From NCBI GenBank assembly GCA_963751455.1, contig CAVVUN010000015.1:992001-1056000 (forward strand): a stretch of 64,000 bases of DNA, given 5' to 3'. The notes below the pieces were generated by a model. The model made no database searches. It saw only the letters and a list, made by a program, of their open reading frames with translations, and was not told where the DNA came from. The translations under genes were made by a program, and so were the position numbers. Shown piece by piece: positions 20,555 to 62,897 of this stretch (position 1 is its first letter; each line of letters begins with the position of its first letter). This DNA is from Nitrospirota bacterium. GTDB lineage: Bacteria; Nitrospirota; UBA9217.

Positions 20555-22654
20555 ATGCCAGATAGAAAAAACATACTGTCTGTTTCCTCGCAGTACATTC
20601 GCCGCATTATAGACTGGTGGTTTACCAGTATAGCATTCAGGGTCTCCTTCTTCATGTCCGCCGCACTTACCGTCGTCGCTCTCCTGATCGGGGCATTCTT
20701 TTTCTGGCAAGGGGAAAAAGCACTCGACTCGGAGATCCGGGGCAGGGCACTTTATGTTGCAAAAGACGTGTCTGCGTCGAGCGTCGATGATATCCTTACC
20801 GTTAATAAGCTTGAGATTTATAAAAAACTCACCTCTCTCTTCACCGCGAACCAAGATTCTCCCTGGGGAAGCGATCTGCTGTATATCATGGCGTATAACC
20901 ATACCGGGGAATTGCTTATCGGAAGAAGCACTCATGATGTTTTTTTTAATAGTGACTCTTATTTTTACATGCAGCCCTCCAGCGATCGATCCTTTTTAGA
21001 TGATATATCTCTCACTCCGGAAGCGCTCAAAGTCAAAGGCCATATTTTCATAGTTCAAAAACCGGACATCTATGATTTAACGTTTCCGGTTATGACCGGA
21101 AGTGACCGAGTCGGCTTTATTCGTGTCGGGATTTCCGGACAGCGACACTCCGAAAAATTTTCTAACATCATGAAACAAGCACTAATCTCTCTTCTGGTCA
21201 TGCTTCTCATAGGCATGGCATTCAGCCAGATTATTGCCCGCGGCATAACACGGCCGATACTACGCCTGAGCGAGGCTGCAGAAAACCTGAGTCGTCAAAA
21301 TTGGGGCAGCCCGCTGCCTGTGAAAGGCAGAGACGAGATCAGCAAGCTAAGCCACGCTTTTAATCAGATGGCAATGAATCTCAATCAGCGGGAACACAGC
21401 CTGTCGCGCGGAAACAAGGATCTGTTTATTCTTCATACAGCCGGCTTGGACCTTATGGAGAGCCTTGAAATCGATACCCTGCTCCTGAAGATAGGAGCCC
21501 GCGCACAGGATCTGGTAAGGGCCGATACGACGTCGGTAGCGATCGTAGACGGGAATGAACGCGTTTTGAAGTATATAGGGGTATTGGGAAGTAAAGCAAC
21601 GTCGCTTAAGGAGATGAACATGCCGCTCGAGTCTGGCGGTATTTATAATTGGCTTGCCTGTTACGGCACACCGCTTCTCATTGCCGATGCGCAAACCGAT
21701 TTTCGGCTTGAAAAAAGCACTATGGCAGCGCTTGGCATCAATTCTCTCATGACGGTCCCCCTCTGGTCCTCAAACACTATGACCGGCCTTCTTACTGCCG
21801 TAAATAAGAAAGGCGGCGCCTGTTTTGACAAGCATGACCTTCGTCTTTTTACGGTTTTTTCCAATCTTGCCGCGGCTGCACTGCAGAATGCGTCTCTGTA
21901 TACCGATTTAACCGGAAAAATGAACGAGCTCCGAGCCGCCCAAGAACAACTGATTCACTCAACAAAGATGGCTGCAATCGGCGAACTGGCTGCAAACGTT
22001 GCCCATGAAGTCAACAATCCGTTAACGAGCGTGCTTGGTTATACGACGCATCTCCTCAAGACGCTGGATCTTCCCGAATCCGCCAAGCGAATTCTTGGCA
22101 TGATGGAACAAGAGACGCTCAGAGTGAGAAAAATAATCCGTAATCTACTCGATTTTTCTCGCCAGAAAACAGGATGGATGAGACCTTATGATATTCTACT
22201 GCCGTTAAAAGAGACGGTCGCTTTCGTGCAGGGCGCAGCGGCGGCGTCATCGGTCAAAATCACTGAAGACTATTCAGCATGCCCGACAATTGTTACTATG
22301 GACCCAAATGCGATGAAGCAGGTTTTTATCAACATTATTAATAATGCGCTGCAGGCAATGCCCGATGGCGGCGTGCTGTCTGTCCGGGCTACGACCGAAA
22401 ATGACAATCAAGTCGTGATCTCATTCCAGGATACAGGACTGGGAATATTGCCGGAAAATATGAAAAAGATATTTGAGCCTTTTTTCTCGACAAAAGAGAG
22501 CGGAGACGGAACCGGTCTTGGACTTTCGATCAGCTACAGTATTGTAAAAAATCATGGCGGCAGAATTGATGTCGAGAGCAACCTCGGCACCGGCAGCGTA
22601 TTTAAGATCTTTCTACCGCTATTTAAAAATCCGACATATGCGCTTAAACAGTAA
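20555..22654 (+). CDS. Membrane sensor histidine kinase (periplasmic domain, HAMP, GAF, HisKA, HATPase)
   Basis: Two TM segments; HAMP DEISKLSHAFN; H-box AHEVNNPL; N-box NIINNA; DTGLGI; FEPFFSTK; GTGLGL. Confidence 0.92.
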   Translation: MPDRKNILSVSSQYIRRIIDWWFTSIAFRVSFFMSAALTVVALLIGAFFFWQGEKALDSEIRGRALYVAKDVSASSVDDILTVNKLEIYKKLTSLFTANQDSPWGSDLLYIMAYNHTGELLIGRSTHDVFFNSDSYFYMQPSSDRSFLDDISLTPEALKVKGHIFIVQKPDIYDLTFPVMTGSDRVGFIRVGISGQRHSEKFSNIMKQALISLLVMLLIGMAFSQIIARGITRPILRLSEAAENLSRQNWGSPLPVKGRDEISKLSHAFNQMAMNLNQREHSLSRGNKDLFILHTAGLDLMESLEIDTLLLKIGARAQDLVRADTTSVAIVDGNERVLKYIGVLGSKATSLKEMNMPLESGGIYNWLACYGTPLLIADAQTDFRLEKSTMAALGINSLMTVPLWSSNTMTGLLTAVNKKGGACFDKHDLRLFTVFSNLAAAALQNASLYTDLTGKMNELRAAQEQLIHSTKMAAIGELAANVAHEVNNPLTSVLGYTTHLLKTLDLPESAKRILGMMEQETLRVRKIIRNLLDFSRQKTGWMRPYDILLPLKETVAFVQGAAAASSVKITEDYSACPTIVTMDPNAMKQVFINIINNALQAMPDGGVLSVRATTENDNQVVISFQDTGLGILPENMKKIFEPFFSTKESGDGTGLGLSISYSIVKNHGGRIDVESNLGTGSVFKIFLPLFKNPTYALKQ

Positions 22655-22695
22655 AGGGCGATGAACACAACGCGTGAGGTAGCTGATATAATGCA

Positions 22696-24132
22696 ATGAA
22701 AAGAAGACTACTGATAGGATTCATTTCCCCGCTGCTTATTTTTTTAATCGGAACTCTTATTGCGGCGATTTATATCACCAAGACCACTCAGCGGATGGAC
22801 CAGTTGATCCTGCTCCACCGTGTTGAGCTTTTGCGGGAAGATCTTATCATCCGTATTCAACATGTGCAATCAAATATTATTCTTAACAAAACGCGAAACC
22901 AGAGTGATGTCGATGCACTTCTCGTCCACATGCAGGAGATCGATAAGGTGATGGATTCTTGCCTCGGTTGCCATCATTCCCCTGAATTGAGCCAAGGCCT
23001 TCACGGAATGCGGGACGTGGCTAACGATTACAAGTCGGCAATCGGCGGGCTGGTTAACGCATCTGTCAAGCCGGTAATGGCCGAGGCACGGGAACGAAGG
23101 GCCCAGTATATGGGACAGGAGCTCATTACCATGGCGCAGGGAATGGCATTTACGGCGAATGTCAGACTCCAGAAAAAGACACAGGAAATGATGGCCACTT
23201 TGCGAGACGTCAGTACTGTTTTGTATGCCACGCTTTTATTTGGTTTTCTTCTTGCAATCGCGATTTCCGCTTTTTTGGCGAAAAGCTTCGACAGAAGAGT
23301 CGAGTCGCTTGTCGCGGCAATCAGGCGAATTTCGCGCGGAGAACTCGAGTATAGAATACCGAAAACGGAGAGTGCGATCAGCGGTTTTCGGGAGCTGGGA
23401 GAGGCATTTAACGAAATGGCCCGCGCATTGCGGCGGGATCAGCGACAATTGGTGCAAAGCGCAAAACTGACCGCGATTGCGGATCTGGGAGCAAGTATCG
23501 CCTATGAAGTCAATCATCCGTTGAACGCAGTTCTCGGCTATACCGGCCACTTATTAAAGTCCGATGATCTCCCAGCCGACAAAAAGGAGCAGCTTAAGAC
23601 CATAGAGCGAGAAACTTTACGGGCAACAGAAATTACCAAGAACCTTCAGAAGTTCGTGAATCGGAAACCGCTTCGTATGCAGAAGGCTGATGTTCGCGCA
23701 ATGATGCGCGAGGTCGTGGAACATGTCAAAAAGCGGCAATTGTCAAATATTAAGTGCATCATGGATTGCGCGGATCCGCTCCTTCCCGTTTCCCTTGACG
23801 CGGACCTCATGAAACAGGTCTTTCTCCATCTGGTTGACAGCAGTTTACGACAGATGCCGAACGGCGGTCTATTAACTATTCGGTGCAAATGCGAACGGGA
23901 TATGTTCGGCAGAGACTTTACGGCAATTGAGTTCACGGACAACGGGGCAGGAATTCCCGATCCTCAATTGGATAAAATATTTGACCCACTGTTCAACACT
24001 CGGCTGGAAGGAGAGGGAACCAGCCTCGCGCTTGCAATGAGTTACCTGATTGTGCAAAACCACGGTGGACGCATAGAAGTAGAAAGCAAAGTGGGCTCGG
24101 GTTCATCATTCCGCGTTATTTTGCCGATGTAA
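22696..24132 (+). CDS. Heme-c-binding sensor histidine kinase homolog with degenerate catalytic motifs (probable pseudokinase)
   Basis: Periplasmic CLGCH; HAMP; H-box AYEVNHPL; N-box HLVDSS; G2 GTSLAL. Confidence 0.85.
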   Translation: MKRRLLIGFISPLLIFLIGTLIAAIYITKTTQRMDQLILLHRVELLREDLIIRIQHVQSNIILNKTRNQSDVDALLVHMQEIDKVMDSCLGCHHSPELSQGLHGMRDVANDYKSAIGGLVNASVKPVMAEARERRAQYMGQELITMAQGMAFTANVRLQKKTQEMMATLRDVSTVLYATLLFGFLLAIAISAFLAKSFDRRVESLVAAIRRISRGELEYRIPKTESAISGFRELGEAFNEMARALRRDQRQLVQSAKLTAIADLGASIAYEVNHPLNAVLGYTGHLLKSDDLPADKKEQLKTIERETLRATEITKNLQKFVNRKPLRMQKADVRAMMREVVEHVKKRQLSNIKCIMDCADPLLPVSLDADLMKQVFLHLVDSSLRQMPNGGLLTIRCKCERDMFGRDFTAIEFTDNGAGIPDPQLDKIFDPLFNTRLEGEGTSLALAMSYLIVQNHGGRIEVESKVGSGSSFRVILPM

Positions 24133-24216
24133 CAACAGAGGTACGGATATTTAAACGTATTTCGAGGACGAGCATGTTCCGGCTTTGTCGGAGAAAGAAA
24201 AGAGTGAGGGGCAGTC

Positions 24217-25734
24217 ATGGCTAGCGAAAAAATACTTGTTGTAGATGACGAGGAAATGATCAGAGACCTATGCAGTCATATTTTGACTGCGGAAGGATAC
24301 CAGGTCACCATAGTTTCAAACGGAGCTGCGGCGCTCGAAGAACTGAGCCGTCACGATATGGATCTTCTTATCACGGATATCAAAATGCCGGGTATGGACG
24401 GACTTGAGTTATTTGAACGGGTCAAACAGCTAAACCAGGACATAGTAACAATATTCATAACCGGCCACGGGACCCTGGACACTGCGATCGAGTCCCTTAT
24501 GCGCGGTGTGGACGGATTCGTACTGAAGCCATTTACGCAGGAAGAAATCCTGGCAGCAGTGGAACGTGCCATAACGCGAAGCAGACTTCAGAATGAAAAT
24601 ATCCGGCTCAAGGCCTTGATCCCTCTCTTCGAAATCAGTAAACTGCTTGTCACTGAAATTGATCTGGCCCATCTTTTCAAGATCATTACCGAGGTCCTTG
24701 TTCAAGAGTTTTCTGTGGACCGGGTATCTTTAATGCTTGTGGACGAGGCTAGCGGAGATCTCATCATACGTGCTTCTCACGGGCTGCCGGCGGAATTGGC
24801 TATGAAATCCCGCCGGAAACCCGGACAGGGAGTATCGGGTCTGGTACTCAAGAACAGGAAACCGCTTATTATATCAGCAGGAAAACATCCGGCGCCCGAT
24901 GTAATGGCGGCCATCAACGTCGAAGATATGCCGGTATCCTCTATGTCGGTGCCGCTCATCGGGAAAAACAAGGTGTTCGGCGTATTGAATGTGAGTAAAT
25001 ATACCGGTTCGCCGTTCAGCGCAAGCGATCTCCAGATAGTACTTATTCTGTCAAGTCAGGTAGTGACTGCCATGGAGAACGCGGCGCTCTATGAAGATTT
25101 ACGCGAGAATTATTTCCGCACCGTTCAGGCGCTCGTAGCGGCCGTCGAAGCAAAGGATCCGTACACCCGCTGGCATTCCACAAATGTCGCAAAGTACGCT
25201 GTGGCGATTGCGCGCGATCTGGGAATGAGCCCGACTCAACTTGAGGAAATGCATATTGCGGCGATTCTCCATGATGTCGGAAAAATCGGTATCAGCGAGG
25301 TGATCATCAGCAAACCTGACCGGTTGAGCCGCGAGGAATTCGACATTATGAAGGATCACCCTGCTCACGGCATACGAATTCTGGAGCCGATCGGATTCTC
25401 CACAGCCATAATTAACGCCATATATCAGCATCACGAACGTTACGACGGGAAAGGATACCCGAGAGGCCTGGCCGGGGAGGAGATCAGTCTTGCAGCACGA
25501 GTTCTCAACGTTGCCGATACCATTGACGCTATGGTCTCCGAACGGCCATATCGCGGTACAATATCGAGCATGGAGGTTCTCGCGGAACTCGAGCGGGAAT
25601 CCGGAGGACAGTTTGATCCGAAGGTGACAGAATCGGCGAGAAGACTGATAGAAAAAGGTCTGCTTAAGCTGGGGATGCGCACGTATTACCAATATACAGC
25701 AGGCACCGATAAAGAGGGGAAAAAGGCGCAGTAA
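24217..25734 (+). CDS. Response regulator REC-GAF-HD-GYP cyclic dinucleotide phosphodiesterase
   Basis: VVDD, DIKMP, KPF; LHDVGKIG; HHERYDGKGYP. Confidence 0.92.
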   Translation: MASEKILVVDDEEMIRDLCSHILTAEGYQVTIVSNGAAALEELSRHDMDLLITDIKMPGMDGLELFERVKQLNQDIVTIFITGHGTLDTAIESLMRGVDGFVLKPFTQEEILAAVERAITRSRLQNENIRLKALIPLFEISKLLVTEIDLAHLFKIITEVLVQEFSVDRVSLMLVDEASGDLIIRASHGLPAELAMKSRRKPGQGVSGLVLKNRKPLIISAGKHPAPDVMAAINVEDMPVSSMSVPLIGKNKVFGVLNVSKYTGSPFSASDLQIVLILSSQVVTAMENAALYEDLRENYFRTVQALVAAVEAKDPYTRWHSTNVAKYAVAIARDLGMSPTQLEEMHIAAILHDVGKIGISEVIISKPDRLSREEFDIMKDHPAHGIRILEPIGFSTAIINAIYQHHERYDGKGYPRGLAGEEISLAARVLNVADTIDAMVSERPYRGTISSMEVLAELERESGGQFDPKVTESARRLIEKGLLKLGMRTYYQYTAGTDKEGKKAQ

Positions 25735-27035: not shown

Positions 27036-28316
27036 ATGAAGAAGTTTGTTGTTTTACTCGTAGTTGTGGCTTTGACTTTTATCAGCGCAATAGCATATGC
27101 CGCAGATGTGACGGTTGGCGGAACGGTACAGATCCGGAGCAGGAATTTCGACACTATGTCTTTCGATGAAAAGGTCGTAACCAAGGACGAAAAAGACACG
27201 CAGGAAAGAATCCAGATGGACATCAATGCCAAAGCAGGAGATGTTAAAGGCAAGATCGCGATCTGGAACGATTTCGATACGTGGGGAAGATTTGAAGCAG
27301 TGCAGGGCATTGCATCGGGAACAACAGTAACGACTACAGCGGGTGATTCCACACAGACGTACAACAATAACAAGATCGGCATCCGCGAGGCATGGGTCAA
27401 TTTCAACGTGCCGGGGCTCCCGATTAACGTGACTGCCGGTCATCAGCTCCTGAAGCTTGCCAACGGCTTTTTCGTCAGTTCGATGCATTTCGGTTCCGAT
27501 GCATGGGTAATAGCGAACCAGACGGGAAACAACACTTTTGCTGTTGTTAACGGGAAAATCGCTGAGAACACGACGAGCCTTTCAGACGACCAGGATCTTT
27601 ATACTATCCTCGATGTCTTTAAGCTTAGCGACAATGCGACGATCGGCGTTGATTTTTCTAACGTCAAAGATCGTTCGGGCGCGGACCAGGTGGACCTGAT
27701 GAATGTCGGTATCAATTTTAACGGTAAAATCGGCCCGGTTGCACTTAAAGCCCAGTTCGATCAGAACATGGGAGACAAAACGACCGGAGGGACCGTAAAG
27801 CAGGACTTTACCGGTAATGAAATCGTAGTCCAGGGCAAAGTTCCGATCGCGCCCGTTACGCTCAACTTCACGTTTGCAATGGGTTCCGGCCAGGACACTT
27901 CCAGCGACGTTACCCTGTTCCAGAACTTCCTGGATGTTGATCCGCATGTCGCCTTTATGTATGAGTATAAGATACCGACAGCAGCCGGAAGGAAAAACAC
28001 AGGCTTCGCGAACACGACGGCTATCGGCGTGGGAGCAACCATGGCGGCATCCAGCAGCGTGACCGTAGGCGCTGATCTCTGGCTGTTAAGCGCCTCTGAA
28101 AAAGTGAATGTAACTCAAACCGGCAGAGCTGCAGGTGCGGTCTCCGATGATGTGGGCACGGAAATAGACTTGGCCGTTAATTGGAAAGTGGCCGAGAACC
28201 TGACCTGGAACTGGAACGTCGGCTACTTTATGCCTGGCGATGCGTATCTTGATGCGACCGGCGCAGGCGACGATGCCGCTACCGGTATTACGGGCATCCT
28301 CGCGTTCAAGTTCTAA
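27036..28316 (+). CDS. Outer-membrane beta-barrel porin (alginate-export/OmpJ-like)
   Basis: Signal peptide ending AYA; amphipathic strands; GTEIDL motif; C-terminal Phe; GGAGG RBS. Confidence 0.8.
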   Translation: MKKFVVLLVVVALTFISAIAYAADVTVGGTVQIRSRNFDTMSFDEKVVTKDEKDTQERIQMDINAKAGDVKGKIAIWNDFDTWGRFEAVQGIASGTTVTTTAGDSTQTYNNNKIGIREAWVNFNVPGLPINVTAGHQLLKLANGFFVSSMHFGSDAWVIANQTGNNTFAVVNGKIAENTTSLSDDQDLYTILDVFKLSDNATIGVDFSNVKDRSGADQVDLMNVGINFNGKIGPVALKAQFDQNMGDKTTGGTVKQDFTGNEIVVQGKVPIAPVTLNFTFAMGSGQDTSSDVTLFQNFLDVDPHVAFMYEYKIPTAAGRKNTGFANTTAIGVGATMAASSSVTVGADLWLLSASEKVNVTQTGRAAGAVSDDVGTEIDLAVNWKVAENLTWNWNVGYFMPGDAYLDATGAGDDAATGITGILAFKF

Positions 28317-54650: not shown

Positions 54651-55544
<894 letters not shown>

Positions 55545-55547
55545 TGA

Positions 55548-55614
55548 ATTGCGGATTGCACCCTGCACTCGCGTTATGCACTCGTGAACACTGGGTGCAG
55601 GCGGAGTGCGGAAT
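55548..55614. repeat. Element A (55559-55601) within an ATTGCGG heptamer tract
   Basis: CACCCTGCACTCGCG...GGGTGCAGG flanked by attgcggattg and cggagtgcggaat. Confidence 0.8.
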
Positions 55615-55735
55615 AAAACATTAAGTAAGGTTGCTTTTCTTCGCGTCCTTCGTTTATGCTCGCGTTTTGGCAACAGCAGGGTACGCCTTAGCGGTTCAAG
55701 GCTTTATATTCGGTTTATGAAAGTCAGGAGAACGT

Positions 55736-57163
55736 ATGAGTTCAACTATTAAAGATACTCAAAAAATGATCGAAGAGGTCCTGGAGGCTTACCCGGAGAA
55801 ATCGAAGAAGGACCGGGCGAAACATCTGGCCGCCAACGATCCCACGGGCCAGTGCAGCACCTGCCAGGTGAAGTCGAACGTCAAGTCGCGTCCGGGCGTC
55901 ATGACGGTCCGCGGCTGCGCGTACGCGGGCGCCAAGGGCGTGGTCTGGGGGCCGGTGAAGGACCAGATCACGGTCAGCCACGGTCCGGTGGGCTGCGGCC
56001 AGTACTCCTGGTGGTCGCGCAGGAACTACTACAACGGCCAGACCGGCATCGACGCCTTCGGCACCATGCACATCACCACCGACTTCCAGGAAAAGGACAT
56101 TGTGTACGGCGGCGACAAGGGCCTTGATGCTGCTCTGAAAGAATTGAAAGGACTCTTCCCCCTCGGCCGCGGCATAGGCATCCTGTCCGAATGTCCCGTA
56201 GGACTCATCGGCGACGACATCGAAGCGGTCTCGAAGCGGGTAGCGAAAGAGATGGGCATTCCCATCGTGCCGGTGCGGTGCGAAGGGTTTCGGGGCGTTT
56301 CCCAGTCCCTGGGTCACCACATTGCGAACGATACGATCAGAGATTACGTTCTCGGCAAGGGTGAACTCAAGAAGTCCACTCCGTATGACGTGAACCTGAT
56401 AGGCGATTACAATATAGGCGGGGATGCCTGGGCTTCACGCAAAATACTGGAAGAGATGGGCCTTCGCGTGATCTCTCAATATACCGGCGACTCCACGATC
56501 AACGAGATCGGCATCGCGACCAAAGCAAAAATGAACCTCGTCCATTGCTATCGGTCGATGAATTATATCTGCCGGCACATGGAGGAAACTCACGGGATTC
56601 CATGGATGGAGTTCAACTTCTTCGGCCCGACAAAGATATACGACAGCATCAGGAAGATTGCTGCGAAGTTCGACCAGAAGATCCAGGAAAATGCTGAGGC
56701 CGTGATCGCGAAGTACAAGCCGCTCATGGACAAGGTGGTCGAGCAGTACCGGACGAAGCTGGAAGGCAAGAAAGTGATGCTCTATGTCGGCGGCCTCCGC
56801 CCGCGCCACACTATCGGCGCATATGAGGACCTCGGCATGGAAGTCGTTGCATCGGGTTACGAGTTCGGCCACAGCGACGATTACAAACGCACCTATCCCG
56901 AAATGAAGGAAGGCGCGGTGATCATGGACGACGCGACCTTGTATGAGCTGGAAGAGTTCACACGCAGGCTGAAACCCGACATGGTCGGCTCGGGCATCAA
57001 GGAGAAGTATTCCTACCACAAGCTCGGCGTACCGTTCCGGCAGATGCATTCCTGGGATTATTCAGGCCCGTACCACGGATTCGACGGGTTTCCGGTTTTC
57101 GCGCGGGATATGGACATGACCGTGAACAGCCCGACGTGGAATTTGATAAGAAGAAAGAAATAA
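55736..57163 (+). CDS. nifD: Nitrogenase MoFe protein alpha chain
   Basis: P-cluster Cys in GCAYAG, GCGQYS, SECP; cofactor ligands in HCYRS and QMHSWDY. Confidence 0.98.
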
Positions 57164-57165
57164 TT

Positions 57166-57259
57166 TGGACGCGGATAAACGCAGATTGACGCGGATAAAC
57201 CCAAAAGAACAAAAGACCTGACTTTAAATCTGCGTTCATCTGCGAAAATCTGCGTCCCA
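57166..57259. repeat. Long imperfect inverted repeat built from ~10-nt units
   Basis: ggacgcggataaacgcagattgacgcggat ... atctgcgttcatctgcgaaaatctgcgtcc. Confidence 0.75.
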
Positions 57260-57277
57260 TAGTTTTTGGAGGATATC

Positions 57278-58783
57278 ATGAAAATCAGAGACCATAGCGA
57301 GCTGTTTAAGCAAAAAGACTACCAGGAGCAATTCGAGCGCAAGAAGGAGTTCGAAAACTGCTGGCCCGCGGAGAAGGTAAAAGAGATCTCCGAGTGGACC
57401 AAGACCGAGGAGTATAAGGAGCTGAACTTCAGCCGCCAGCACATAAAGATCAACCCGGCAAAGGCCTGCCAGCCCCTCGGCGCGGTGTTCTGCGCCTCGG
57501 GTTTCGAGGGTTCCATGCCCTTTGTGCAGGGCGCCCAGGGCTGCGTTGCCTACTTTCGAAGCCACCTGAGCCGGCACTTCAAAGAGCCTTTCGCCGCGAT
57601 ATCGACTTCGATGACCGAGGACGCCGCGGTGTTCGGCGGCCTGAACAACATGCTCGAAGGTCTGGAGAACGCCTATACGTTGTACAAGCCCAAGATGCTT
57701 GCGGTCTCGACGACCTGTATGGCGGAGGTAATCGGCGATGACCTGAACGCCTACATCAGGACCGCGCGCGAGAAGGGCGTGATCCCGCAGGACCTGCCGG
57801 TGCCGTTCGCGCACACGCCGAGCTTCGTGGGTTCCCACATCGTAGGCTATGACAACATGATGAAGGGCATCCTGGCAACGCTCTCCGCGGGCAAGAAGGG
57901 CGAGCCGAACAAGAAGATCAACATCATCCCGGGCTTCGATACCTATACCGGGAACTATCACGAGATCAAGCGGCTGATGGCGCTGATGGGCTTCGAGTTT
58001 ACGCTCCTTGCGGACGTGAGCGACACTTTTGATTCTCCGAACACGGGTGAGTACAAGCTCTACCCCGGCGGCACGCCGCTTAAGGGCGCCGCCGATGCAA
58101 TAAACGCAACAGCGACGATCGCACTCCAGAAGTATTCGATCATGAAGACCACGGATTACATCCAGAAGGAATGGGGCCAGAAGACGCTCGTGGTTTCTCC
58201 GATCGGCATCAGGAATACCGATACGTTCTTTGCTGAGCTGAGCAAGCTTATTGGCAAGCCGATCCCGGCGGAGATCGAGGCCGAGCGCGGCAGGGCAGTG
58301 GACGCCATGGTGGATTCGCACCCGTACGTTCACGGCAAGCGTTTCGCGCTTGTCGGCGACCCGGACGTGCTGCTTGGCATGATGAGCCTCATCATGGAGA
58401 TGGGCGGAGAGCCGGTGCATATCGTCTGCACCAACGGGGACAAGAACTTCGAGGCCGAGGCGAACGAGCTTCTGGCATCCAGCCCATTCGGGGCCAACGG
58501 CAAGGTCTACGCAGGAAAGGACATGTGGCACCTTCGGTCCCTCCTGTTCACCGATCCCGTGGATCTTTTGATCGGAAATTCCTATGCGAAGTTCCTCACG
58601 AGAGATACCGGGACACCGCTTATCAGAGTCGGTTTCCCGATCTTTGACCGGCACCATCTGCATAGGCATCCGATCATTGGGTACCAGGGTGTCATCAACC
58701 TGATCACGATGATGGTGAACACGGTGCTTGACGAATTGGACAGAAATACCGTGGATTCAGCGAGTTTTGATGTGATCAGGTAA
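57278..58783 (+). CDS. nifK: Nitrogenase MoFe protein beta chain
   Basis: INPAKACQPLG, QGCVAY, TTCMAEVIGDD, GFPIFDRH. Confidence 0.98.
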   Translation: MKIRDHSELFKQKDYQEQFERKKEFENCWPAEKVKEISEWTKTEEYKELNFSRQHIKINPAKACQPLGAVFCASGFEGSMPFVQGAQGCVAYFRSHLSRHFKEPFAAISTSMTEDAAVFGGLNNMLEGLENAYTLYKPKMLAVSTTCMAEVIGDDLNAYIRTAREKGVIPQDLPVPFAHTPSFVGSHIVGYDNMMKGILATLSAGKKGEPNKKINIIPGFDTYTGNYHEIKRLMALMGFEFTLLADVSDTFDSPNTGEYKLYPGGTPLKGAADAINATATIALQKYSIMKTTDYIQKEWGQKTLVVSPIGIRNTDTFFAELSKLIGKPIPAEIEAERGRAVDAMVDSHPYVHGKRFALVGDPDVLLGMMSLIMEMGGEPVHIVCTNGDKNFEAEANELLASSPFGANGKVYAGKDMWHLRSLLFTDPVDLLIGNSYAKFLTRDTGTPLIRVGFPIFDRHHLHRHPIIGYQGVINLITMMVNTVLDELDRNTVDSASFDVIR

Positions 58784-58788
58784 ATACG

Positions 58789-58870
58789 CCCCTCACCACA
58801 GCCCTCTCCCCAGAGGGTAGAGGGTGCTGAAAAATTCCTCTCCCCAAGGGGAGAGGATTAAGGTGAGGGG
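58789..58870. repeat. Element B, CCCCTCACC...CCCTCTCCC...GGAGAGG...GGTGAGGGG composite palindrome
   Basis: Terminal inverted arms; related copy at 61336-61420, weaker relatives near 52706-52772 and 54455-54493. Confidence 0.8.
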
Positions 58871-58893
58871 TGCAGTTGTCAAGTTGATTACTT

Positions 58894-59646
58894 ATGATAA
58901 GCGTTATGCATGATATCGCTGTTACAGGCATATATTTCTTTCTGATCGCGCTTCTGTATTCAACGGTCGGGCACGCGGGAGCTTCAGGCTATCTGGCGAC
59001 CATGGCGCTGCTTTCGTTTCCGCCGGCGGTCATGAAGCCGACAGCCCTTGCACTGAATATCATCGTGGCTTTGATCACGACTGTCCGTTTCTACACAGCA
59101 GGTCATTTTTCATGGCGGCTCTTCTGGCCCTTTGCCCTGGCGTCGGTGCCCCTGGCGTTTCTCGGCGGCGGACTGACGGTTCATACGGCGATATACAAAA
59201 TACTCGTGGGCTTTGCCCTCATTTTTGCAGCGGCTCATCTGATCCTTCGAACCAAAGTCGCTTCAGTTGGACCTGAAAAGATCGGCGACCCCGCAGTTCC
59301 CGTATCCATGCTGACGGGAGGCGTTATCGGTTTTGTTTCAGGTATCACCGGGGTCGGCGGCGGCATTTTCCTGAGTCCTGTTCTGATTATGTTGAATTGG
59401 GCGGGACTGAGAAGAGCTGCTGCTGTTGCCGCGGCATTTATTCTCCTCAATTCGATGTCGGGCCTGGCAGGCTATGTTCATAAAGGAGGAGCGTTCCCGG
59501 AGAACATTGCTCTATGGGCTGTTGCCGTAGTTTCCGGCGGATTCATCGGTTCCTCTTTAGGGGCAACAAGGCTCAACAGCCCGGTTTTAAGATTGCTGCT
59601 TGGCGTTGCCCTGATGATGGCAGGGATGAAACTGGTGATGATCTGA
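58894..59646 (+). CDS. TauE/SafE (TSUP) family transporter
   Basis: VGHAGASGY, GITGVGGGIFLSP; multiple TM segments. Confidence 0.85.
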   Translation: MISVMHDIAVTGIYFFLIALLYSTVGHAGASGYLATMALLSFPPAVMKPTALALNIIVALITTVRFYTAGHFSWRLFWPFALASVPLAFLGGGLTVHTAIYKILVGFALIFAAAHLILRTKVASVGPEKIGDPAVPVSMLTGGVIGFVSGITGVGGGIFLSPVLIMLNWAGLRRAAAVAAAFILLNSMSGLAGYVHKGGAFPENIALWAVAVVSGGFIGSSLGATRLNSPVLRLLLGVALMMAGMKLVMI

Positions 59647-59756
59647 AATGGAAGGCCAAGTTTTGATGTAATCGTGTGAGTGAACAAAAAGCAGCCCACT
59701 ATAAACTGCATTAAAAAGTAACAACATAGCGTGGCTTGTACGCCATAACAAACGAC

Positions 59757-59826
59757 TGTAGGGCAAGGCTTTAGCCTTGCTAAAAAAACACCTGAAAAGC
59801 GCGCAACCCTAAAGGGTTGCCCTACA
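59757..59826. repeat. REP doublet, reverse complement of 49750-49831
   Basis: TGTAGGGCAAGGCTTTAGCCTTGC...GCGCAACCCTAAAGGGTTGCCCTACA. Confidence 0.85.
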
Positions 59827-59942
59827 AGAAAAGAATCGGCATCAATACTATTTTGAGCTGGTTTAAGTCACGAAGCCACTAAAAAAACTTTGGGCCTTGG
59901 TGTCCTTGTGGCAGGTATTGTTTTACAAATGTGGAGTTCAAG

Positions 59943-62897
59943 ATGGTTACCGCAATCGACAAATTGACGAAGGATGGTTGTTCCGCGGAAGACAAAGCGA
60001 AAGTGTGTCGCTCCCGGGGCGGAGAATCCTGCGCGTTTGACGGGGCGATGATCGTTCTTCAACCAATCGCCGACACCGCCCATATTGTGCACGGCCCGAT
60101 TGCCTGCTGCGGTAATTCATGGGAAGGCAGGGGAACAAAATCGCGGGTAAAGGCGTATGGACTTGGGCGAGCTCAGCCGAGCCGCAATACGCCCGTACAA
60201 AACGGTTATATGCCCCTGCATCAAATGGGCTTCACGACGGATATGGCCGAGATCGACATCATCTATGGCTCGGAGGAGAAGCTCCTGAAGGCCATCCACC
60301 GGACATATCAGGCCGTACAACCGAAGGCCATCTTCGTATATTCGACCTGTGTAAGCGGGCTTACGGGCGAAGACATCGATGCCGTGTGCAAACGCGCGGA
60401 AGATGAGCTCGACGTCCGGGTGATTCCCGTGAATGCACCGGGCTTTGTAGGGCCGAAGAACCTGGGGAACCGTATCGCCGGCGAGGTTCTGCTCGAACAT
60501 GTTATCGGCACGGCAGAGCCGCCGATCATGACCCATTATGATATTAATCTCATCGGCGAATACAACATTGCGGGCGATCTCTGGCTCGTAGAGCCGCTCC
60601 TTGCAAAAGCAGGCATCAGGATACTTTCCAGGCTCACCGGAGATTCGACCTTCGAGGAAATCACGTGGGCCCACCGCGCGAAGTTGAACGTGGTTGTCTG
60701 CGGCCGCGCCCTCATCAACGTTGCTCGGGAGATGGAGAGAAAATATCAAGTTCCTTATATCGAGGCTTCCTTCTTCGGCAATACGGAAATTGCAAAGGCT
60801 TTGCGGATGATCGCCGAGAAGCTCCGGAAGACAGAAGTCAGTGGACAGAAGTCAGACGAAAACAGCGGGATACAGGAACTTGTCACGAAACTGGTCAGGA
60901 CCGAGGAAAGGCAACTAAAACTCCAGCTTAAATCGTACAAGCATTTACGCGGCAAGAAGGCGATGCTTTATACCGGCGGGGTGAAGAGCTGGTCCTTCAT
61001 CTCTGCGTTACGAGATCTGGGAATCGACGTTGTGGCAATCGGCACGAAAAAGAGCACGGTCGAGGACGAAGAGAAAATGAAGATGATCCTCGGGCCTGAC
61101 GCGCCGCTGGTCGAGGACGTAACGCCGAAGAACCTGCTCAAACTGCTGAAGGAACGTCAAGCGGACATGCTCATTGCCGGGGGGCGTAACCAGTACCTCG
61201 CGGTCAAAGAGGGCTATCCTTTCGTGGATGTGAACCAGGAGCGGCACACAGCCTATGCGGGATATCAGGGCCTCGTCAACCTTGCCGAACAGATCAGCAA
61301 CAGCCTTCGCTTTTACAATGCGAAATGCGGAGTTGCCCCTCACCCCGGCCCTCTCCCCAGAGTGGAGAGGGGGAATGCAAAGACTCCTCACCCCGAGGGG
61401 GAGAGGACAAAGGTGAGGGGGAATCTGAAATCCGAAATTCTGATCAATCCCCTCAAACATTCTCCCTCCATCGGGGCGGCCATGGCCCTCCAGGGGATAG
61501 ACGGGGCCCTCCCGCTTATCCATGGCGCGCAGGGCTGCACCTTTCTCGGCAAGGTGCTCCTGACCAGGCATTTCAGGGAGCCGATCGCGCTCGCATCGAG
61601 CAAGCTCTTTGTCGAGGACGTGGTCATGGGAAGCGAGGAAAAGTTATTGAAAGCCGTTGAAGGGTTCGTCGAGAAGAGCAAACCCGGTATCCTTGGTATT
61701 CTCACCTCGGGGCTTTCAGAGGTAAAGGGAGATGATGTAAAGGCAGTAATCAGGAGACTTGCACCCAGCGGTTACGACTGCTTACGCGAGCCTGCACCCG
61801 GCGACTTCGAGTGCGGCAGCGCGAGAGTGGGGTGTGCAGGGTGTCGGGAGTCGGGAGTCGGAAAACCATTAAGAACGCAGATAATCCATGTTGCGACGCC
61901 TGACTATGACGGAGGGCTGGAGGCCGGCTATGCGAGGGCGGTGGAGGCGGTAATTCAAATTGTGGATTTCACCCTGCACTCGCGCTACGCACTCGTGGGC
62001 GCGGGTGTAAACGGATTGCGGATTGCGGAATCGAGTCAAAACCAGCCTGATGTAATAAGAATAAATCTGCTGGTGGGGCCGCATCTCACGCCTGCCGATG
62101 TTTCCGAATTACGGGAAATCGTCGAATCCTTCGGCATGCGACCGGTCATCCTCCCGGACCTGTCCGCTCTCGATGGAAGCAGGCAGAGTTTTTCTCCTCT
62201 CGCAGCAGGAGGAACGACCCTGGAGGATGTCAGGAGTATGGCCGGTTCGGACTACACCATAGTCTTTGGTGTGAGCATGGAACCTGCGGCGAAGCTCTTG
62301 AGTCGGAAATCCGGCATAGAGTACCAGGTATTCGAGAGCGCAGCCGGTATTGCAGCCACGGACGCATTTATGCAAACGCTTAGCAAAATCAGCGGCACGC
62401 CGATCCCCCGGAAGTATGAACGCCAGAAGCAGGTCCTGATAGACGCCATGCGGGACGCTCATTTTTATTTTGGAGGAACGAAGATATGCATTGCCGTGGA
62501 CCCGGATCTTGCGGTCCAGATCTCTCATGTGCTCGATGAAATGAGCGCCTCAGTTGATCTTGCCGTGATACCGGCCTTATCCGAGGCAGCGGACAGAATC
62601 AGGGCGCGGGACGTGCGTATCAGCGATCTCTTCTCTATCGAGGGCGCATTCGACCTCCTCGTCTCCAACTCGCACGGTGAAAGCACGGCAAAACGGCTCG
62701 GGGTTCCGCTTTATGAAATGGGGTTTCCGGTGTACAAGACGTTCGGTTATACATCAAAAGTGACGATCGGATACCGGGGAACTCTGATGATAATAAGCGA
62801 GATCGCAAGTTTACTGATGAAAAAGCAGACAACTGAGCGTGAGGAGGGACCGGATGAAAATCGCTTTTGCAACGACCGACGGAAAAAACGTAAATGA
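59943..62897 (+). CDS. nifEN: Fused FeMo-cofactor scaffold NifE-NifN with in-frame repeat-derived insertions
   Basis: NifE motifs CAFDGA, HGPIAC, STCV, YTGGVKSWS, DVNQER; NifN motifs INPLKHS, HGAQGC, RHFREPI, GFPV, IGYRG in one ORF. Confidence 0.93.
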   Translation: MVTAIDKLTKDGCSAEDKAKVCRSRGGESCAFDGAMIVLQPIADTAHIVHGPIACCGNSWEGRGTKSRVKAYGLGRAQPSRNTPVQNGYMPLHQMGFTTDMAEIDIIYGSEEKLLKAIHRTYQAVQPKAIFVYSTCVSGLTGEDIDAVCKRAEDELDVRVIPVNAPGFVGPKNLGNRIAGEVLLEHVIGTAEPPIMTHYDINLIGEYNIAGDLWLVEPLLAKAGIRILSRLTGDSTFEEITWAHRAKLNVVVCGRALINVAREMERKYQVPYIEASFFGNTEIAKALRMIAEKLRKTEVSGQKSDENSGIQELVTKLVRTEERQLKLQLKSYKHLRGKKAMLYTGGVKSWSFISALRDLGIDVVAIGTKKSTVEDEEKMKMILGPDAPLVEDVTPKNLLKLLKERQADMLIAGGRNQYLAVKEGYPFVDVNQERHTAYAGYQGLVNLAEQISNSLRFYNAKCGVAPHPGPLPRVERGNAKTPHPEGERTKVRGNLKSEILINPLKHSPSIGAAMALQGIDGALPLIHGAQGCTFLGKVLLTRHFREPIALASSKLFVEDVVMGSEEKLLKAVEGFVEKSKPGILGILTSGLSEVKGDDVKAVIRRLAPSGYDCLREPAPGDFECGSARVGCAGCRESGVGKPLRTQIIHVATPDYDGGLEAGYARAVEAVIQIVDFTLHSRYALVGAGVNGLRIAESSQNQPDVIRINLLVGPHLTPADVSELREIVESFGMRPVILPDLSALDGSRQSFSPLAAGGTTLEDVRSMAGSDYTIVFGVSMEPAAKLLSRKSGIEYQVFESAAGIAATDAFMQTLSKISGTPIPRKYERQKQVLIDAMRDAHFYFGGTKICIAVDPDLAVQISHVLDEMSASVDLAVIPALSEAADRIRARDVRISDLFSIEGAFDLLVSNSHGESTAKRLGVPLYEMGFPVYKTFGYTSKVTIGYRGTLMIISEIASLLMKKQTTEREEGPDENRFCNDRRKKRK

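Follow-up and report, generated by a model that had tools for sequence, protein, structure and literature searches.

A conserved tyrosine at the phospho-histidine position of a predicted heme-c sensor kinase encoded beside its sister kinase and an HD-GYP regulator in Nitrospirota

A window of 64,000 nucleotides from a Nitrospirota bacterium (GenBank assembly GCA_963751455.1, contig CAVVUN010000015.1, positions 992,001 to 1,056,000), which is the whole stretch of DNA analysed here, carries on its plus strand, downstream of rplQ, three intact open reading frames encoding two tandem sensor kinases, HK1 and HK2, and a regulator with receiver (REC), GAF and HD-GYP domains (Table 1). As an earlier note on this DNA had proposed, HK2 is a kinase homolog without the phospho-accepting His and with a conserved heme motif outside the membrane. 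Tyr replaces this His throughout the HK2 family, and we tentatively favour, with somewhat less than even confidence, a reading in which the family HK2 is a phosphatase of the regulator, gated by a signal and opposing HK1. The copy in the window is rather probably in decay or under relaxed selection, and is the poorest member of the family to study.

The conservation of the Tyr was followed in an alignment of 120 HK2 homologs (the query and the best 119 of 225 matches) and at 34 orthologous loci taken from further genomes belonging to the same family. Of the 120 proteins, 115 carry Tyr at position 270, three His, one Cys and one Asp, and among 149 readable H-boxes Tyr occupies the position in 144 and Phe in none. 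The codon is TAT at 19 loci, TAC at 14 and CAT at one; since both Tyr codons are found and His is just one transition away, the residue has outlived synonymous turnover. A core alignment of the HK2 of a relative puts the Tyr opposite the H-box His of ZraS, FixL and HK853, so that HK2 lacks the phospho-site residue of an active HisKA domain, which HK1 conserves in 30 of 30 orthologous cores. In the tree of HK2 homologs, built from proteins longer than 440 aa, the His-bearing members make up one nested clade, which points to a reversion from Tyr to His. The 150 best sensor-carrying clusters at 50% identity include 79 kinases, of which 76 have His at the phospho-site and one has Tyr, which makes the Tyr form one lineage. 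Two side observations concern this position: the reverted clade (L033:7395-8840, P0044, P0054, P0062) has an altered G2 box, GTGLEM, and two other heme-sensor kinases, P0199 and P0201, have Gln or Gly in place of the His, possibly as independent losses.

Most of the remaining transmitter is preserved in the family. The Asn at H+4 is found in 119 of the 120 homologs and in 146 of the 149 H-boxes, the window copy being the exception among the 120, with His274 where HisKA phosphatases have Thr or Asn (PMC3510030). N378 is kept in 112 of the 120, N382 in 111, G443 in 114 and G445 in 106, and of 117 full-length homologs 100 have N382, D415, G417, G419, G443 and G445 all at once, including 98 that carry Tyr; the N-box Asn and the GxGxG of the G2 box are thus common in the family and missing from the window copy. 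The CLGCH, AYEVNHPL (with its Tyr at 23503), HLVDSS and GTSLAL motifs all lie where the earlier note had placed them, but its view of three degeneracies forming one design was not supported: the His-to-Tyr change is old and conserved, whereas the losses in the N-box and G2 box, like that of the H+4 Asn, are private to this genome. Canonical orthologs with recent decay, which the note had named as the outcome contrary to its proposal, are therefore what we see for these two boxes and not for the Tyr.

Comparison with HK1 shows where the constraint on HK2 lies. For the two genus pairs in which both proteins were measured, the ratio of nonsynonymous to synonymous substitution rates (dN/dS) of the DHp domain is 0.019 and 0.021 in HK2 and 0.042 and 0.053 in HK1, and within HK2 the constraint is strongest on the DHp surface. 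The ATP lid of HK2 is looser than that of HK1 across the same 25 genomes, with T435 kept in 17 against 25, T442 in 18 against 25 and G445 in 22 against 25, and with K436 changed to Arg in 23 of the 25. Both kinases share the Thr at H+7, the Gly at H+11 and the Tyr at H+12.

The HK2 of the window departs strongly from this pattern. It is changed at 40 of 205 conserved sites, ranking first of 34, while by the same score HK1 ranks 19th of 27 and the regulator 30th of 32; its erosion exceeds that of every homolog scored in each of four regions. Its DHp branch has a dN of ~0.15, compared with ~0.03 for its sister and for HK1, and its sensor-HAMP branch measures 0.43 against 0.059 in the sister. The losses comprise Asn at H+4 and Thr at H+7, the two Asn of the N-box and two Gly of the G2 box, together with Ser117 and Thr121, residues conserved in the sensors paired with a binding protein. 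The mean BLOSUM score of the changes is -0.15, with -0.41 for random ones, a weak indication given that the nine changes of HK1 average -0.67. A further ortholog with an interrupted frame was noticed at L053:4985-6269, where HK2 lies in two frames split before the H-box, either as a broken gene or as an assembly indel; this locus was kept apart from the codon and scorable-locus analysis.

The outer domain of HK2 is predicted to be a four-helix bundle with covalent heme c. The predicted transmembrane segments span residues 4-28 and 172-198, which leaves the CxxCH outside the membrane. This motif occurs in 120 of 120 close HK2 homologs, and CxxCHH in all of the 150 best 50%-identity clusters carrying the sensor, so that it is not a product of chance; His41 is found in 139 of these clusters and His94 is a further conserved His. 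The residues of CxxCHH and His41 are candidate heme ligands. The genome also encodes cytochrome c maturation proteins (Cytochrom_C_asm and ResB), which together with the conserved outer CxxCH is the profile of a c-type heme sensor. In the structure model (mean pLDDT 82) the sensor consists of four helices without any strand, and Foldseek ranked first Adeh_2942, a helical sensor (PMC3831638). With VIA-align the first match was LytSN of the XylFII-LytS complex (Z 16.6, root-mean-square deviation 1.6, 117 residues aligned), although helical bundles score high easily, and the nearest ESM Atlas clusters are unnamed, followed by 4HB_MCP_1, KinB_sensor, CHASE3 and TarH, which we take as leads only. 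No convincing Pfam family matched the outer domain of HK2, and Pfam searches on 22 sensor members gave no match to sCache_heme/DUF3365.

In this regard, the sCache_heme domain (DUF3365/Tll0287) is likewise a periplasmic CxxCH heme-c sensor of signalling proteins, and it is reported to be common in Nitrospirota (PMC12889525). As published there it has a Cache fold, whereas the HK2 sensor is an all-helical bundle with the conserved His41 and His94 besides, and falls outside that family by fold; it is thus a different domain. At 50% identity the HK2-type sensor falls into 301 clusters; 98 of the phylum's 301 genomes encode it, on kinases and GGDEF proteins. A scan of the genome collection with a single sensor protein as query found no relative. 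Two more heme-sensor proteins were seen in the same genome, a His-bearing PAS kinase ahead of an NtrC-type regulator (C12:644402-646243) and a GGDEF-EAL protein (C15:1261504-1264437), and no partner-type binding protein was found in the genome for either of them.

The gene order around HK2 is highly conserved. HK2 stands beside the HD-GYP regulator, encoded downstream of it, in all of the 34 orthologous loci, in keeping with the synteny that the earlier note had suggested checking. HK1 lies upstream of HK2 in 29; in two (L035 and L040) it is missing and in three its place falls beyond the contig end. In 21 of the 34 these genes are followed by another pair, a PAS kinase with an NtrC-type partner. 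Directly upstream of HK2, 19 of the 32 scorable loci (a set that includes this genome and leaves out L054 and L064, which lie at contig ends) carry a gene for a ~300-aa binding protein of the PhnD/PtxB type, an arrangement like that of AioXSR which this genome lacks; among non-orthologous sensor proteins an adjacent binding protein occurs in 9 of 11 and in 21 of 25. The best match to the binding protein in this genome reached 165 bits, compared with 339-430 bits for 11 held-out partners, and the genome has, judging from its gene content, lost the partner of HK2. In loci of other families some variants were observed: L068:2100-7546 (G182) has two tandem units of binding protein and heme kinase with cores at zero tree distance (a recent duplication, a conversion or an assembly repeat), which echo the two-kinase layout of the window; in L068, L070 and L085 a second periplasmic binding protein precedes the unit; and in two of these three an upstream gene resembles by eye an outer-membrane barrel. 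At L033, of the reverted clade, there is no binding-protein gene, and a stretch upstream looks by eye like a remnant.

With respect to their origin, the parallel between the DHp regions of the two kinases, pointed out in the earlier note, was confirmed by the core trees as true paralogy. The HK1 core is the best paralog of the HK2 core in the genome (194 bits, the next one 125), and the two are sisters to the exclusion of the 74 other cores of the genome (support 0.998). A wider tree again unites them (0.976), inside a clade with 14 His-bearing heme-sensor kinases (0.994), most of which have HAMP and GAF domains and an adjacent binding protein; these two supports are FastTree local values, in a midpoint-rooted tree built without DivL. 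Compared with these His-bearing heme-GAF kinases, the match of HK1 runs from HAMP to its end and leaves out the outer domain, and that of HK2 covers both sensor and core. It is therefore likely, from these comparisons, that HK1 and HK2 arose by duplication of one His-bearing heme-GAF kinase; since the sensor tree does not settle the nearest group of the Tyr clade, we infer rather than show a duplication with division of parts. A former idea, that the sensor was grafted onto a copy of the HK1 core, gave way once the same core type turned up in His-bearing heme-GAF kinases. Of the shared GYTGHLLK and GYTTHLLK stretches that the note had taken as a sign of kinship, the paralogy holds, but the His in them is private to the HK2 of the window (the family has Leu, 25 of 25) and its codon differs from that of HK1; gene conversion between the kinases at this motif was rejected because of the differing codons.

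On the output side, the regulator seems well preserved. Its receiver is intact (DD, D54, K), its HD-GYP motifs are present, both are kept in all of the 19 sequences aligned, and its identity across the family is 74-87%. It has the H..HD..H..HH..D metal ligands, the GYP and an RPYR at 25543-25554 that aligns with the RxxK of PmGH, and it is likely a phosphodiesterase that degrades cyclic di-GMP (c-di-GMP), as far as can be told from these residues. Rxx(K/R) has been described as a signature of c-di-GMP preference and RxxQ/N as that of cGAMP enzymes (10.1101/600031), and the regulator resembles PmGH-type HD-GYP proteins in metal ligands, GYP and RxxR in place of RxxK (10.1101/600031, PMC8177086). 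It differs from PmGH in its REC and GAF input domains and in a Tyr that replaces the Glu of PmGH in KDPxT (25147-25176). If this Glu is the third-metal ligand of PmGH, a two-metal site is likely in the regulator.

Altogether, the preferred reading would join these elements as follows. The Tyr at the His position, the outer CxxCHH and the gene order are conserved, as the sequences themselves tell, and the outer domain is predicted to hold heme c in its bundle, on which the PhnD-like protein, loaded with some oxyanion, might dock, as its gene position suggests. The trees point to an ancestral His-bearing heme-HAMP-GAF kinase that would have been duplicated, HK1 retaining GAF and His with a different outer domain, and HK2 retaining the heme sensor and the binding protein and fixing Tyr. 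HK1 would then phosphorylate the receiver Asp of the HD-GYP protein, and HK2 would dock on the same receiver and strip the phosphate through its H+4 Asn, the state of the heme or of the binding protein thereby setting the breakdown of c-di-GMP. In favour of a phosphatase we count the conservation of Tyr and of the H+4 Asn, the constrained DHp and looser ATP lid of HK2, and the locus L040, where the binding protein, a canonical HK2 and the regulator are kept with no HK1 between rplQ and HK2. Precedents exist in CrdS, where this Asn is needed for phosphatase activity and the H371A variant is still active (PMC3510030), and in RetS, whose degenerate ATPase domain does not preclude phosphatase activity (PMC5992135). 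The phosphatase suggested in the earlier note hence fits the family and does not fit the window copy, because the H+4 Asn is replaced there by His274. In this genome the binding protein, the H+4 Asn, the docking Thr, the N-box and the G2 residues are gone, so that the HK2 arm is probably off and HK1 alone would drive the regulator.

Several observations weigh against this reading. DivL, with Tyr for His, shows no kinase activity and no phosphatase activity either (PMC4211667), and in PleC both are abolished by H610A (cited in PMC3510030). The Glu at H+1 (Glu271), which CrdS needs solely for kinase activity (PMC3510030), is invariant in HK2 (120/120), and the N, G1, F and G2 boxes retained in most members would also fit an ATP domain acting in trans. 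HK1 and HK2, moreover, differ at H+8, H+14 and H+15. As for the window copy, its frame is unbroken (with a probability of ~0.07 under pure drift, so some selection may remain), CxxCHH and His41 are retained, and erosion is milder in the sensor than in the core (16/97 versus 33/112, p = 0.03); a relaxed selection or reduced role is for these reasons likelier than a dead gene. Synonymous sites to the relatives are saturated, which precludes a dN/dS for its branch. Nor does loss of the binding protein always cause decay, a rule that was rejected when set against the dN/dS of the HK2 DHp: pairs of genus g3, where the loss is accompanied by relaxation, gave 0.24-0.30 and pairs of genus g8 0.007-0.062, the latter being constrained despite the loss.

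Among the rival explanations, control through a heterodimer, in which HK2 pairs with HK1 and its heme sensor steers phosphorylation of the HK1 His, is unlikely, as are its variants in which HK2 inhibits HK1 or lends it an intact ATP domain in trans. Such pairing would restore in trans the wiring that was ancestrally in cis, agrees with the sister cores, their adjacency in 29 of 34 loci and the presence of all of the N, G1, F and G2 boxes in 100 of 117 proteins, follows the example of the paralogous ChrS pseudokinase, which heterodimerises with HrrS (PMC9491836), and would explain why the window copy keeps an open frame despite losing catalytic residues. However, HK1 is missing at L035 and L040, the latter still with a canonical HK2, the ATP lid is looser than in HK1, and the GAF domain between HAMP and DHp in HK1 is absent from HK2, so that the anchored chains differ by ~220 residues.

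It is equally doubtful that HK2 is a reader of the DivL kind, binding the phosphorylated receiver unchanged, with the Tyr blocking back-transfer, and so sequestering or allosterically tuning the HD-GYP enzyme or the downstream NtrC-type pair. The family shares with DivL the combination of Tyr with retained N, G1, F and G2 boxes (PMC4211667), constraint peaks on the DHp surface, and Phe never replaces the Tyr in the 149 H-boxes; a mere binder, though, would have no obvious need for the H+4 Asn kept in 146 of them, and the output of DivL runs through PAS domains (PMC12963549), which HK2 lacks. A broader proposal, to which as a whole we also give little chance, is that a heme-c four-helix receptor supplied by an oxyanion-binding protein was divided by duplication into a kinase half and a sensor half, the latter having evolved a DivL-type Tyr independently to control c-di-GMP in trans, with the Tyr itself required, possibly in phosphorylated form. 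The window copy would then be a later stage, a sensor-only subunit that shed binding protein and catalysis and has still been retained.

We find it very improbable that HK2 is an active kinase autophosphorylating on Tyr270, or on His274 in the window copy. The conserved Tyr, the invariant H+1 Glu and the ATP-binding boxes intact in most members would allow it; DivL, however, has little or no autokinase activity (PMC4211667), His274 occurs in one of 120 homologs, and the window copy has lost both N-box Asn and two G2 Gly. Finally, sequencing or assembly errors are hardly credible as the source of the extra changes in the window copy: it does come from a single genome, with a one-member protein cluster and no close relative in a scan of metagenome contigs (one relative at 59%, with Tyr), but dozens of missense changes with zero frameshifts have accumulated in one gene between two normal ones.

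Among known systems, HK2 would work like DivL or RetS, yet it appears to be distinct from DivL. DivL of Caulobacter crescentus (PDB 4Q20) shares with the family the H-box Tyr, the N, G1, F and G2 boxes and a conserved DHp docking surface (PMC4211667), a pattern of which the window copy retains only the Tyr. The Thr277Asn change of the window falls in the same H+7 register, by counting and not by alignment, as DivL T557N, which disrupted DivK binding (PMC4211667). HK2 differs from DivL by its membrane heme four-helix sensor and HAMP, with no PAS (Pfam finds only HAMP, HisKA and HATPase_c). DivL ranks 5th and 19th among solved kinases as a match to the HK2 core, and in the tree, from which DivL is absent, this core falls among His-bearing kinases of the same phylum; we infer that the two Tyr are convergent. 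RetS/GacS of Pseudomonas aeruginosa and ChrS/HrrS are similar in that a sensor without kinase activity counteracts another kinase or pairs with it, through transmitter phosphatase activity or heterodimer formation (PMC5992135, PMC9491836); RetS, in reverse of the HK2 family, keeps the His with a degenerate ATPase domain and has receiver domains, and the ChrS variant is a frameshift evolved in the laboratory (PMC9491836). On the sensing side, the partner gene belongs to the PhnD/PtxB group with AioX and ArrX, as in AioX/AioS (PMC8050422), and LytSN of XylFII/LytS is the best fold match of the HK2 sensor; AioS has an sCache-like sensor, neither the AioS nor the LytS entry of the review lists heme or a missing His (PMC8050422), and the partner gene of HK2 has been lost here.

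His-less kinases are already known in DivL, PsmA (PMC12963549) and the ChrS variant (PMC9491836). Within the literature searched, which covered few subscription papers, we found no paper on the HK2 family and DivL as the only tested His-to-Tyr pseudokinase. In the HK2 family a heme four-helix sensor that no domain model describes occurs together with a binding protein, a fixed Tyr and an intact sister kinase, and this combination is new. The HK2 family thus offers a second, apparently independent His-to-Tyr case beside DivL, with natural controls in the intact sister kinase, the His-bearing outgroups, the Tyr-to-His reversion clade and the eroded copy; these make testable the reason why Tyr is kept and the division of labour in a duplicated kinase. 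Its sensor domain, with no Pfam model, would add a four-helix class to the known heme-c sensors.

Table 1. Coordinates of the two kinases, the regulator and the HK2 motifs, numbered from the first letter of the window
Feature	Position	Strand	Description
HK1, intact kinase	20555..22654	+	699 aa; Pfam HAMP, GAF, HisKA, HATPase_c, weak sCache_3_2; two transmembrane segments, Cache-like outer domain, HAMP, GAF, HisKA with His484, HATPase_c
HK1-HK2 gap, 41 bp	22655..22695	+	site of the PhnD/PtxB-like gene in relatives
HK2, Tyr-for-His pseudokinase, eroded here	22696..24132	+	478 aa; Pfam HAMP, HisKA, HATPase_c; transmembrane segment, four-helix CxxCHH sensor, transmembrane segment, HAMP, DHp, CA
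HK2 predicted periplasmic four-helix bundle sensor, residues 29-172	22780..23211	+	no Pfam family
HK2 conserved His41	codon at 22816	+	
HK2 CLGCHH, heme-c attachment motif	22960..22977	+	CLGCH part 22960-22974
HK2 AYEVNHPL	23500-23523	+	Tyr270 = TAT at 23503
HK2 H-box	23503..23526	+	Tyr270 family-wide, Glu271 kept; Asn274 to His and Thr277 to Asn in this genome only
HK2 N-box, HLVDSS	23827..23844	+	family consensus has N378 and N382
HK2 G2 box, GTSLAL	24016..24033	+	family consensus has G443 and G445
REC-GAF-HD-GYP regulator	24217..25734	+	505 aa; Pfam REC, GAF, HD_5

Counts of promoters and terminators were at chance level (5 versus 7.0 and 8 versus 5.8, respectively). Elsewhere in the window, a gene resembling an outer-membrane porin lies at 27036-28316 (several relatives also have it after the operon), and the region 54705-62897 shows by eye a likeness to nifH, nifD, nifK and a fused nifE/N.

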